A stretch of 32,044 nt of DNA from Thermoflexales bacterium (GTDB lineage Bacteria > Chloroflexota > Anaerolineae > B4-G1 > DUEL01): contig JBBIKR010000023.1 of NCBI GenBank assembly GCA_037445395.1, positions 1 through 32,044 on the forward strand. The letters are read 5' to 3'. Under the pieces are notes generated by a model that ran no database searches, was not told where the DNA came from, and was given only the letters and a program-made list of their open reading frames with translations. Every line of letters begins with the position of its first letter. Position 1 is the stretch's first letter. A program made the translations under genes and the position numbers. This document shows, in pieces, positions 12,270-15,807 of this stretch.

Positions 12270-13955
12270 ATGCCCGTCCATATCCGTCCCCGGCTGACGT
12301 TTCTGGTGCTTCTGCTGGTGCCCCTGGCCCTGCTCCTGGTCTGGCGCCTCACAGACGTCCAGGTCGTTCACGGCGCCACATATCGCCAGCAGGCGGTCCG
12401 GGAACGGATACGGAATCTGGCACTTCCCGAACCTCCCCGGGGTTCCATCTCCGACGCCAACGGTTTCCCCCTGGCCCTTAGCGAGCCCCACTACACCATC
12501 TGGGCCAGCCCGGCGTACATCACGAACGTCGGGGCAGTGGCGGAAATCCTCTCCCCGGTTCTCCAGGTTCCCGCCGAGACCCTCTCCGTAACGATGGCGG
12601 TTACATCCCAGGGCGTGATTCTGGCCCCCTTCGTCTCCCGGGAGCAGGGAGAAGAGGTCAAGAAGTTGAAACTGTCCGGAGTCTGGGCAAGATTGCACTG
12701 GCTGCGGCGGTACCCCCACGGGCCTCTGGCGGCACACCTGCTGGGCTTCACCGCCTACGGCGGGGAAGGATTCTACGGACTGGAGGGGTACTACGACCGC
12801 GTGCTCCGCCCCCAGACGGTGGAGGTGGTCACGGAGGCGGACCCATCCGGCACGCGGCCGATCCCCTACGCAGAAGGCCGGTTTCCCATCCCCCAGCGGG
12901 GCAACCACCTGGTGCTGACGGTGGACCTGGCCATGCAGATGGCCGCGGAGGAGGAACTGGCCCGGGGGCTGGAGGAGTTCGGCGCCGAAAGGGGGCTGGT
13001 CATCGTGATGGACCCTCGAACCGGGGCCATCCTGGCGCTGGCCGTCCAGCCGTCCTTTGATCCCAACGATTATCAGCGATACATGAACGAGGACCGGGAA
13101 GAGGTATTCCTGAACCCGGCCGTCAACACTCAGTACGAACCCGGCTCTATCCTGAAAATCATCACCCTGGCCGGCGCCCTGGATAGCGGCGCGGTCTCCC
13201 CTCAGTTTACGTACGTAGATACCGGGCGGATAGAGGTCGGGGGACAGGTCATCAGCAACTGGGACGGGAAGGCCTACGGGGAGCAGGACCTGGTCGGGTT
13301 GATGGGGCATTCGCTGAACGTGGGGGCGGCCACGCTGGCCGTGCAGATGGGCCCGGAGACGTTCTACCGCTACGTCCGGGCCTTCGGTTTCGGGCAACCC
13401 ACCGGGGTGGACCTGCAGGGAGAGGTGGCCGGAACGGTGCATATGGTAGGGGACCTGGACTGGTACGATTCGTACCTGGGGACCAATGCCTACGGGCAGG
13501 CCATTGCGGTGACGCCGATGCAGATGGCGGCGGCGGTGGCGGCGGTCGCCAACGGAGGTCGCCTGGTGCGGCCCTACGTGGTCGCCCGGCAGATTCGGCC
13601 CGACGGGTCGGTGCAGGAATCCCGCCCGGTCGTCCGGGGGCAACCGATTTCCCCCGAGACGGCCCGGGCGGTCACGGAGATTCTGGCCCAGGCCACGGAG
13701 CGCCACATGCCTCAGGCGACCGTCCCCGGCTACCGCATCGCCGGGAAGACGGGGACGGCCCAGATTCCGGTCCCCGGTGGGTACGACCCGCGCGGGACCA
13801 TCGCGTCGTTCGTGGGCTACGGGCCGGTGGAGGACCCGCACCTGCTGATCCTGGTGCGGCTGGACCGCCCCCGCTCCTCACCCTGGGCCTCCCAGACCGC
13901 CGCTCTTGTCTTCCAGCGGCTGGCGACCCGGCTGTTCCCGATGGCTGGAAACTGA
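12270..13955 (+). CDS. ftsI: class B penicillin-binding protein (FtsI-like)
   Basis: N-terminal TM, RGSISDANG, RRYPHG, GLEGYYD, EPGSILK (SxxK), SLN, KTGT. Confidence 0.92.
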   Translation: MPVHIRPRLTFLVLLLVPLALLLVWRLTDVQVVHGATYRQQAVRERIRNLALPEPPRGSISDANGFPLALSEPHYTIWASPAYITNVGAVAEILSPVLQVPAETLSVTMAVTSQGVILAPFVSREQGEEVKKLKLSGVWARLHWLRRYPHGPLAAHLLGFTAYGGEGFYGLEGYYDRVLRPQTVEVVTEADPSGTRPIPYAEGRFPIPQRGNHLVLTVDLAMQMAAEEELARGLEEFGAERGLVIVMDPRTGAILALAVQPSFDPNDYQRYMNEDREEVFLNPAVNTQYEPGSILKIITLAGALDSGAVSPQFTYVDTGRIEVGGQVISNWDGKAYGEQDLVGLMGHSLNVGAATLAVQMGPETFYRYVRAFGFGQPTGVDLQGEVAGTVHMVGDLDWYDSYLGTNAYGQAIAVTPMQMAAAVAAVANGGRLVRPYVVARQIRPDGSVQESRPVVRGQPISPETARAVTEILAQATERHMPQATVPGYRIAGKTGTAQIPVPGGYDPRGTIASFVGYGPVEDPHLLILVRLDRPRSSPWASQTAALVFQRLATRLFPMAGN

Positions 13956-14035
13956 TGCTTCATCCCGCCGATCGCTGACGTTCAGTTGTGGCCTTGTAGT
14001 ACAGGATTCATCCTGTCCTGATGCAGGATAAATCC

Positions 14036-14273
14036 CAATGCCACTAACATTTGGACGTGAGGCAGGCTTTTGAGCCTGCCGGCATCCTGGAAGGGCAGTA
14101 GCACAAAACACACCCTGTCATTGCGAGCCGCCGAAGGCGGCGAAGCAATCTCCCTGCGCCAAATAGGGGATTGCTTCGGGCGCTCCGCGCCCTCGCAATG
14201 ACACGGAACATGGCCTATATCGCACTGCCCATAAGGGTTCGTTTTGCGGAACTGCGAAAAGTTAGTGCCATTG
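14036..14273. mobile_element. 238-bp non-autonomous MITE with IS4-like ends
   Basis: TIRs CAATGCCACTAAC / GTTAGTGCCATTG (12/13); 10-bp direct repeat GGATAAATCC at 14026-14035 and 14274-14283; excision restores the REP arm. Confidence 0.8.
14116..14203. repeat. cruciform palindromic element (TGTCATTGCGAG type) inside the MITE
   Basis: TGTCATTGCGAG/CTCGCAATGACA outer stem, CCGCC-GAA-GGCGG, CGAAGCAATC/GATTGCTTCG, GGGCG/CGCCC arms. Confidence 0.8.
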
Positions 14274-14391
14274 GGATAAATCCTGCGCTACAATCGGGGT
14301 AGTATAGGATTTATCCTGTCCTGATGCAGGATAAATCCTGCGCTACAATCGGGGTGGTTCACAGGTGCGCAGGTACAGAGAGGTTGAAGAG

Positions 14392-15807
14392 ATGCTGTCG
14401 TTAGCGGATGTGGTGGAAGGATTGACGGGGGTGCGGCCGCCCGAACTGGAACAGCGGCCGACGGAGATGGTGGTGGATTCCCGCCTGGTCTCGCGGGACG
14501 GGGTCTTCGTCGCGCTGCGGGGGGAGCAGGCCGACGGGCACGACTACGTCGCCGACGCGCTGGCCCGGGGCGCCGCCATGGCGCTGGTCGCGCGGCCCCT
14601 GGAGGTCGCCGCGCCGGTGGCGGACCTGACCCTCTCGCCGCCCGCGCTCCCGGAGACGTGGACTCTGCCCGTCCTGCTGAAGGTCCCGGACCCGCTGGGC
14701 GCGCTCCAGAAACTGGCCGCCTTCTGGCGCCGTCGCCATTCCCCGCGCGTGGTCGGCGTTACCGGGAGCGTCGGCAAGACCACCACGAAGGAACTCATCG
14801 CCGACGTCCTCTCCCGCCGCTACCGCACCCTGAAGAGCGAGAAGTCCTACAATAACGAGATCGGCCTGCCGCTGACTCTGCTGCGGCTCACACCCGACAC
14901 CGAGCGGGTCGTCCTGGAGATGGGGATGTACGATGTGGAGGAGATCGCCCACCTGGCCGAAATCGCGCTCCCGCACGTGGGCGTCGTCACCATCATCGGG
15001 CCGGTCCACCTGGAGCGGGCCAAAACGATGGAACGCATCATCCAGGCCAAGACGGAACTGGTCCAGGCCCTGCCCCCCGCGCCGGAAGGGGTAGCGGTCC
15101 TGAACTACGACGACCCCAACGTCCTGGGGATGCGCGCGGCCACGAAGGCGCGGGTCTTCACCTACGGCCTCTCCCCCGATGCCGACCTCTGGGCCGACCA
15201 GATAGAGGGGCTGGGGCTGGAGGGGGTCCGTTTCCGGCTCCACTACCGGGGAGAGACTCTGCACGTCCGTATCCCGCTCCTGGGGCGGCACTCGGTCCAC
15301 ACCGCGCTGCGGGCGGCGGCAGTGGGGCTGGTAGAGGGACTCACCTGGCAGGAAATTCTGGAGGGGATGTCGGCGCCGTCGTCGCAACTGCGGCTGGTGG
15401 CGGTGCCCGGCCCGCACGGCTCCACCATTCTGGACGACACCTACAATGCCAGCCCGCCTTCTATGCTGGCCGCCCTAAACCTGCTGGACGAACTGGAGGG
15501 CCGGAAAATCGCCGTTCTGGGGGACATGCTGGAACTGGGCGACTACGAGCAGGAAGGGCACGAGAAGGTGGGCCTGCGGGCAATGGAGGTGGTGGACATT
15601 CTGATCACCGTTGGGCCGCGCGGGCGCATCATCGGCGAGACGGCCCGTCGCTGGGGCATGCCCGCCGACCGGGTCCATATTCTGGAGGACAACCAGGCCG
15701 CCGTCCGATTGCTGGAAAGCATGCTACAACCCGGAGACGTGATCCTGATTAAGGGTTCCCGCGCGATGCGGATGGAGGAGATCGTCAACGCGTTGAGCCA
15801 GGAATAG
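14392..15807 (+). CDS. murF: UDP-MurNAc-tripeptide--D-Ala-D-Ala ligase
   Basis: DSR, DGHDY, GVTGSVGKTTTKE, NNEIGLPLT, DDTYNASP, GDMLELG, KGSR. Confidence 0.95.
   Translation: MLSLADVVEGLTGVRPPELEQRPTEMVVDSRLVSRDGVFVALRGEQADGHDYVADALARGAAMALVARPLEVAAPVADLTLSPPALPETWTLPVLLKVPDPLGALQKLAAFWRRRHSPRVVGVTGSVGKTTTKELIADVLSRRYRTLKSEKSYNNEIGLPLTLLRLTPDTERVVLEMGMYDVEEIAHLAEIALPHVGVVTIIGPVHLERAKTMERIIQAKTELVQALPPAPEGVAVLNYDDPNVLGMRAATKARVFTYGLSPDADLWADQIEGLGLEGVRFRLHYRGETLHVRIPLLGRHSVHTALRAAAVGLVEGLTWQEILEGMSAPSSQLRLVAVPGPHGSTILDDTYNASPPSMLAALNLLDELEGRKIAVLGDMLELGDYEQEGHEKVGLRAMEVVDILITVGPRGRIIGETARRWGMPADRVHILEDNQAAVRLLESMLQPGDVILIKGSRAMRMEEIVNALSQE

Follow-up and report, generated by a model that had tools for sequence, protein, structure and literature searches.

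In the dcw cluster of a Thermoflexales bacterium, 435 bp separate murF from a gene for a class B penicillin-binding protein, and this spacer holds a nest of mobile DNA. Taken as a whole, the nest is very probably a non-autonomous IS4-subgroup MITE that was inserted at the tip of a REP hairpin and that carries pre-assembled, passive cargo. The evidence, all of it observed directly, consists of the anatomy and boundaries of the element, its copy number, its target duplications, ends in common with autonomous elements, a target bias and an empty allele. Positions refer to the window, i.e., the whole 32,044-nt stretch analyzed, which comes from a 2.95-Mb assembly (65% GC, 247 contigs, 91% complete). 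The 238-bp element, its 10-bp duplication, two 55-bp REP doublets, an 88-bp cruciform and a hairpin all lie where the original prediction had placed them. The features are as follows (strand given where one applies).

12270-13955, + strand: class B penicillin-binding protein gene (FtsI/SpoVD-like), upstream gene in the dcw cluster; profile matches are below curated cut-offs.
13996-14035: first GTAG REP doublet, portion left of the insertion (one monomer, the spacer and the second monomer as far as the cut); 95% identical to 14299-14338; 56 intact hairpin cores in the genome.
14026-14035: left copy of the 10-bp target duplication, formed by the 4-bp stem, 2-nt loop and 4-bp stem of the REP monomer hairpin (from the sequence).
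14036-14273: the mobile unit itself, a MITE of 238 bp; the genome has 11 full copies, whose duplications are site-specific.
14036-14052, + strand: terminal inverted repeat of IS4-subgroup type (-AATR--------WTW); fits Table 1 of PMC2266710; at most 1 mismatch over 19 nt to one autonomous IS end.
14057-14094, + strand: remnant of a GTGG-footed REP-like hairpin pair, its right side cut off by the inner element; the complete form, free of the inner element, is in L023.
14095-14255: inner MITE with the ends of a Mutator-like (IS256-related) IS, own 8-bp duplication not kept; free copies in L003 and L022; L323 (PF00872, E 6e-7).
14116-14203: 88-bp cruciform, a head-to-head dimer of TGTC/CGTC-type REP-like monomers; fold z -7.4; 61 dimers in the genome; assigned from the text of PMC3733652.
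14257-14273, - strand: terminal inverted repeat of IS4-subgroup type; at most 1 mismatch over 19 nt to 7 autonomous IS ends.
14274-14283: right copy of the 10-bp target duplication (from the sequence).
14284-14298: right-hand remainder of the interrupted doublet; on the - strand its GTAG foot occupies 14291-14288.
14299-14353: second, intact 55-bp REP doublet (sequence comparison, folding).
14392-15807, + strand: murF, downstream gene; TIGR01143 above its cut-off; the ORF opens at 14365, and the ATG at 14392 aligns with relatives.

The duplication GGATAAATCC is present at 14026-14035 and 14274-14283, and the MITE between them reads CAATG..CATTG. It is short, non-coding (no ORF of at least 80 aa within the 238 bp), bounded by inverted repeats, multicopy and flanked by target duplications, and the whole element folds at z -7.0, with 0/200 shuffles as good. 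Both ends fit the IS4-subgroup pattern -AATR--------WTW and are found on autonomous transposase elements, and the direct repeats of 10 and 12 bp in this genome fall within the 10-13 bp of the subgroup. A search of the whole assembly with the 17-nt ends (at most 3 mismatches) gave 34 ends, which make up 11 full copies and 12 lone ends. The full copies are 236-241 bp long and 83-99.6% identical. Eight form a young-looking subfamily (closest pairs 98-99.6% identical), and the window copy groups with C51 and C55. Duplications are exact in 8/11 (10 bp in 7/11, 12 bp in one) and imperfect in the remaining three. Since the copies at C51, C55 and C28 carry duplications that are unlike the usual one and match on both sides, the boundary of the MITE is CAATG..CATTG and misassembly is disfavored. 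The original prediction had also allowed a boundary at 14034-14275 with a 6-bp ATAAAT duplication; this was ruled out by the C55 copy and by many autonomous elements, all lacking CC before CAATG.

Two copies (C21:32250-32444 and C228:2877-3040) end at or just after the cruciform and continue into unrelated DNA, by recombination with free cruciforms or by misassembly. Matches to the MITE were detected in 21 of 60 relatives; nearly all are to the cruciform alone, and none of those listed covers both outer ends. In two genus relatives the end pattern matched 10 and 15 times; these matches represent other MITEs, mostly in GGC..GCC hairpins, and MITEs composed of two IS4-type ends around REP-like cargo are frequent in the order (e.g., L147, L150, L154). 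Viral contigs gave 108 single matches to the inverted-repeat pattern and none to the REP pattern.

The interrupted 55-bp REP unit is made up of 13996-14035 plus 14284-14298 and folds at z -5.6 (0/200 shuffles as good). It has the GTAG foot, short stem-loop, multiple copies and dimers of GTAG REPs. The intact second doublet had been proposed as the pre-insertion state; 14299-14338 is 95% identical to 13996-14035. A look for copies in REP loops elsewhere in the genome had also been suggested: 9/11 full copies entered the same monomer position, the duplicated bases being those of the hairpin tip (4-bp stem, 2-nt loop), and the orientation of these nine relative to the REP foot is split 4 to 5. 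Taking a single junction from each full copy or lone end gave a list of 23; the REP core is present within 2 mismatches at 18 of them, and a nineteenth (C166) differs by one deleted base. The remaining 4/23 represent three non-REP sites (C51, C55, C123/C188); rebuilt and folded, these are not hairpin tips, and C123/C188 resembles the REP in sequence. The genome holds 56 intact 14-bp REP cores in 2.9 Mb as compared with 38,374 GG-N6-CC sites, and the rule CAGG-W6-CCTG selects 22 genome sites, 21 of them this GTAG REP. GG-started 6-bp hairpins number 1307, 57 of which belong to the GGAT class; no other class is entered at the tip. Further abundant hairpin repeats (e.g., of CCGGTCGGC..GCCGACCGG type) occur in long mosaic intergenic clusters on many contigs, and none was seen to be entered at its tip by the MITE.

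A bias of this kind could also arise by survival or co-amplification, that is, by purging of insertions elsewhere or by copying of MITE and REP as a unit by a larger element or a RAYT. REPs are intergenic, where insertions survive, and six junctions (C20, C105, C166, C171, C186, C210) have a longer outer flanking repeat in common, so that not all REP insertions are independent. Yet the same base is cut in a 14-bp core with far fewer intact copies than there are GG-N6-CC sites, both orientations are present, a different element (C186) occupies the same position, autonomous relatives sit in the same register of unrelated REPs, and no Y1 transposase was found in the assembly. We consider survival or co-amplification improbable and take the bias as targeting of the REP tip.

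At C20:46500-47000, C166:1-520, C105, C171, C186 and C210 of this genome (G000) the REP doublet lies within a repeat of a few hundred bp ending in approximately TAGTA(T/C)TTGACC. These ends presumably recall the IS701 type. The larger repeat is a fifth layer for those MITE copies, and C64:13404-13460 looks like the MITE-less form. A RAYT gene flanked by the target REP, which had been suggested as a check, was not encountered: the assembly has no match to PF01797 (Y1 transposase), and among about 125 listed Y1 loci, 30 were examined and 0/30 had the target REP. Y1 genes at L356, L357 and L367 (the last in G091) are flanked by different REPs with the same build; these GTAG/GGAG REPs consist of a foot, 4 nt and a 4-bp stem, as in the targets of the clade described below.

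An empty site in a related genome was found, as had been hoped for. In read run X9, which contains a strain ~96% identical to this one, both flanks are covered at a depth of ~700, but the depth over 14041-14097 is 1.9, and 14018 is joined to 14324 in two contigs. The related strain carries an empty allele at this site. A contig from run X2 matches 13915-14059 over the left junction; it reaches only 24 bases into the MITE, fewer than the bridging rule requires. It is highly improbable that misassembly of repeats produced the nest, or that the layers arrived here by successive insertions. The fragmentation of the assembly (247 contigs), the broken-off copies at C21 and C228, and the lack of a contig spanning the whole stretch among those listed from four read runs would suit such an origin; against it stand an interior common to all 11 full copies, the matching private duplications at the unique sites C51, C55 and C28, and the X2 contig, which has no difference from the window across the junction. 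We retain a single insertion of a ready-made MITE.

The original prediction described a nested insertion. The layers are present, but the cruciform is not a separate insertion at this locus: since all 11 full copies carry it, it is fixed cargo. A GGCAGGCT hairpin lies at 14061-14080. An inner GGGCAGT..ACTGCCC layer had been tentatively drawn at 14093-14230; an inner element does exist, its right end was misplaced, and its extent is 14095-14255. The second end-like ACTGCCC at 14224-14230, inside the inner element, is conserved in free copies and may be an additional, older layer. Another genome of the order (G052) has free copies of the inner element at L003 and L022 (87-91% identity across MITE positions 59-225) and, at L023, the outer part without the inner element. 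The latter has damaged ends and no duplication of its own, and it is the sole outer-only example behind the assembly order proposed below. At L023:2080-2240 the outer end of this related element is split by another inverted-repeat element of ~160 bp with a 7-bp duplication.

The inner-end pattern was detected in 59/145 genomes of the order, many of these being single, possibly chance matches. Most paired free copies have 8-bp duplications, and one genome, G144, has 73 matches, a large expansion. L323 is a 1.8-kb element with ends of the inner type, an 8-bp duplication and a 568-aa ORF that matches Transposase_mut (PF00872) at E 6e-7, above the Pfam cut-off. The IS256 model NF033543 scores 31.5 bits on this ORF (476 of 568 aa) against a cut-off of 150, a weak match that falls short of the IS256 family proper. 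The inner ends are thus those of a Mutator-type transposase element with target duplications at L323, as in p-MULT/IS256-like elements; inside the 238-bp MITE, this duplication is not seen, and the outer hairpin pair lacks about 10 bp. REP-like cargo between two Mutator-like ends was also observed at L294, L298, L305, L318 and L326, the cargo at L318 being a GTAG doublet of the target type. At L026:1040-1055 and L336:205-220, a TATAAT box immediately precedes the end of a free Mutator-like MITE. Promoter-linked insertion was reported for some p-MULT groups (PMC3942029).

The segment 14113-14206, which holds the cruciform, folds at z -7.4 (0/200 shuffles as good). The genome contains 201 TGTC/CGTC REP-like monomers (T or C before GTC in 155/201) and 61 dimers, 14 of them inside MITE copies. 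The tag, a stem starting with AT, head-to-head dimers and multiple copies fit the text description of CGTC/TGTC REPs; a published family consensus was not found in the supplement text of PMC3733652, the consensus figures being outside the search. Cruciforms occur without the MITE in many of the 60 relatives (21 with matches). The cruciform gave no match to the Ssn-related motif (SRM) with up to 2 mismatches, and the assembly no match to GIY-YIG (PF01541).

An autonomous IS4 element with the same ends had been put forward as a check, and such elements were found in other genomes. The end pattern, searched in 145 genomes of the order, led to L149, with the same end ahead of a truncated transposase, and to L180, which is 410 bp long, derived by internal deletion and flanked by a 10-bp duplication. 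A complete element with these ends, L209, measures 1547 bp and lies in a GTAG REP, where it made an 11-bp duplication. The transposase has 205 full-length homologues at E 1e-20, and the closest are in records titled Anaerolineae or Chloroflexota. The IS4 model NF033592 scored 146-167 bits (cut-off 115) on 5/5 proteins tested. The alignment contains D142, D218 and E328 together with Y321, R324, E328 and K335, i.e., the D(60-110)D(100-150)E and Y(2)R(3)E(6)K arrangement of the subgroup. Most two-ended loci are 1489-1588 bp long and two are longer (1651 and 1701 bp), as compared with 1400-1650 bp for the subgroup. In the present genome, the only transposase sequence of this type is a remnant: the end at C186, within the same REP, codes for the last 25 residues (84% identical to P0025, E 7e-6). 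Neither PF01609 (one unrelated match, C108) nor tblastn with 121 homologues nor searches by protein and by alignment turned up a full cognate transposase in the 91% complete assembly, and an alignment search of 401 genomes of the phylum gave none at E 1e-60. The IS4-like, REP-targeting MITE family of the original prediction is supported by its 11 full copies, by cognate elements with the same ends, and by the MITE-less related strain.

To examine targeting across the clade we used 121 unique flanks from 80 of 151 metagenome loci plus three genome loci; about nine spurious pattern matches were left in, and the flanks are not independent (a site may contribute its two sides, and related elements and additional copies count separately). 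A perfect stem of at least 4 bp within 10-13 nt closes 67/121 flanks (shuffles, mean 3.6, maximum 11; slid cut, 0-8), with 12 different stem sequences. A GTAG, GGAG, GTGG or GCAG foot lies exactly 8 nt before the duplication in 28/80 stem-bearing flanks. Exact duplications are 10-13 bp long in 12/12 cases, closed by a 4-bp stem in 8/12 and by a 3-bp stem in 10/12. The transposase pairs L255/L256, L234/L243 and L230/L243, 94.6-98.6% identical, are found in different stems, whereas most near-identical pairs have a stem in common.

These numbers are what would be expected if targeting worked mainly by shape, an extruded REP hairpin or cruciform being cut at a fixed stem height whatever its stem sequence, with the duplication length following the hairpin: stems vary, even between nearly identical enzymes, the foot is at a fixed distance, and stems close most exact duplications. 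We regard this as possible but rather unlikely. REPs are palindromic anyway, and any REP-seeking element would show paired flanks. Among the 1307 GG-started hairpins the GGAT class alone is entered at the tip; C51, C55 and C123/C188 are not tips, the last being REP-like in sequence; most near-identical transposases keep to one stem; the 11-bp duplication of the related ISAcma16 is not a hairpin; and CAGG-W6-CCTG by itself, used without any shape, already picks 22 sites with 21 REPs among them. Because one hairpin class is entered, the off-target sites are not tips and this rule alone picks almost only the REP, targeting most likely consists of the reading of a symmetric short sequence, aided by a bendable or extrudable palindrome. 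The broader proposition is doubtful: a widespread IS4-subgroup DDE clade, guided to its target by DNA structure, would bind extruded RAYT-type REP hairpins and cleave the two strands at a set height on the stem, so that the hairpin sets the 10-13 bp duplication and stems can be swapped, with MITEs spreading cargo REPs without RAYT or Ssn. If it were true, about a quarter of the TGTC-REP dimers here would have spread as MITE cargo.

No structured RNA family was detected at the locus (0 Rfam matches up to E 1), nor any terminator-like site. One promoter-like site was found vs. 0.3 +/- 0.5 by chance; at 14265-14294 the MITE end and the REP make up a weak promoter-like site (9 of 12) towards murF, which is not above chance. 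Ten murF loci of genus relatives were examined, and neither the REP nor the MITE was present in the orthologous spacer of the five with both flanks recovered. These spacers (L373, L374, L376, L377, L378) contain other repeats, of 64-891 bp, and the position appears as a hotspot of unrelated repeats. Two genus relatives have a ~400-bp ORF between short repeats in the spacer, which may be a GxxExxY gene. The locus itself represents ordinary mobile-DNA layering between two cell-wall genes.

E. coli IS4 has 11-13-bp repeats in terminator-like palindromes. Subgroup IS4 was described with -AATR--------WTW ends, a length of 1400-1650 bp, 10-13-bp duplications and the DDE and YREK motifs, and target-arm specificity was reported for some members (De Palmenaer et al., 2008; PMC2266710). 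The present MITE differs as a transposase-less derivative with cargo, and the main text of that work does not tie specificity to REPs (0 whole-word occurrences of 'REP'; figures outside the search). ISAcma16 (NZ_AP026076.1, annotated 'IS4-like element ISAcma16 family transposase') is the nearest ISfinder-named element among 25 listed of 126 plasmid records; its ends, CAATGGCACT.AC, are near-identical to those of the MITE, and it is 1483 bp long with an 11-bp duplication. Its transposase is 30% identical to the cognate one, and the duplication of the one copy examined lies outside a hairpin tip. For ISRm22, an IS4-family element of Sinorhizobium meliloti, every copy was reported to lie in a REP, with the insertion at the axis of the palindrome (Tobes and Pareja, 2006; PMC1525189). 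Unlike the MITE, ISRm22 is of the IS4Sa subgroup (per PMC2266710), autonomous and without cargo, with 6-bp repeats reported. ISPpu9 and ISPpu10 of the IS110 family also target REPs, ISPpu9 with non-autonomous modules (PMC12288879), and the target stem-loop was reported as a second specificity layer for ISPpu10 (bioRxiv 10.64898/2026.03.19.712850); both are described as RNA-guided recombinases, unrelated in enzyme and end structure to an IS4-type MITE.

By text description, the target resembles the GTAG REPs of Di Nocera et al. (2013; PMC3733652), with a GTAG-footed stem-loop and head-to-head dimers. The cargo likewise resembles the CGTC REPs of that work in its TGTC tag, AT-starting stem and head-to-head dimer (text description, not consensus figures); it differs in that its loops carry additional hairpins, and the search motif for Ssn-related motifs (PMC11893778) has no match in it. 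The inner ends are close to p-MULT (Guerillot et al., 2014; PMC3942029) in the 1.8-kb IS, the Transposase_mut ORF and the 8-bp duplications; the NF033543 (IS256) score of their IS is below its cut-off. We found no description of this MITE family or of hairpin-tip targeting by its clade in the literature searched (ISfinder and most subscription papers lay outside the search), and nothing in the supplement text of PMC3733652 and PMC2266710, whose alignments and figures were outside the search and may bear on novelty. We concluded that the family is undescribed in the literature searched, as had been proposed, although the REP-targeting habit had already been published for ISRm22.

The MITE was probably mobilized in trans by a DDE/YREK transposase of ~468 aa from an IS now lost or unassembled in this genome, moving by cut-and-paste as other IS4 members are understood to do (family knowledge, PMC2266710). 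A transposase dimer would make staggered cuts at two symmetric half-sites (CA|GG ... CC|TG) of the REP monomer, and for this reason the duplicated bases (10 bp in this case) would be those of the hairpin tip. Lineages of the clade may each be tuned to a REP class of their host, leaving their copies parked in intergenic DNA. The cargo appears to have been assembled once, before the family spread: outer ends would have come to surround a GTGG-type hairpin pair, followed by a Mutator-like MITE in which the TGTC-REP dimer was present beforehand; the entry of this MITE was probably accompanied by a small deletion.

With 14/61 TGTC-REP dimers riding in it, the MITE is a route for copying REPs that have no known dedicated transposase. 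The cognate transposases, their ends and the 121 natural flanks together provide a test case for whether a protein-only DDE transposase reads the shape of a hairpin or a short palindrome, and the same case bears on why IS4-subgroup duplications vary from 10 to 13 bp.
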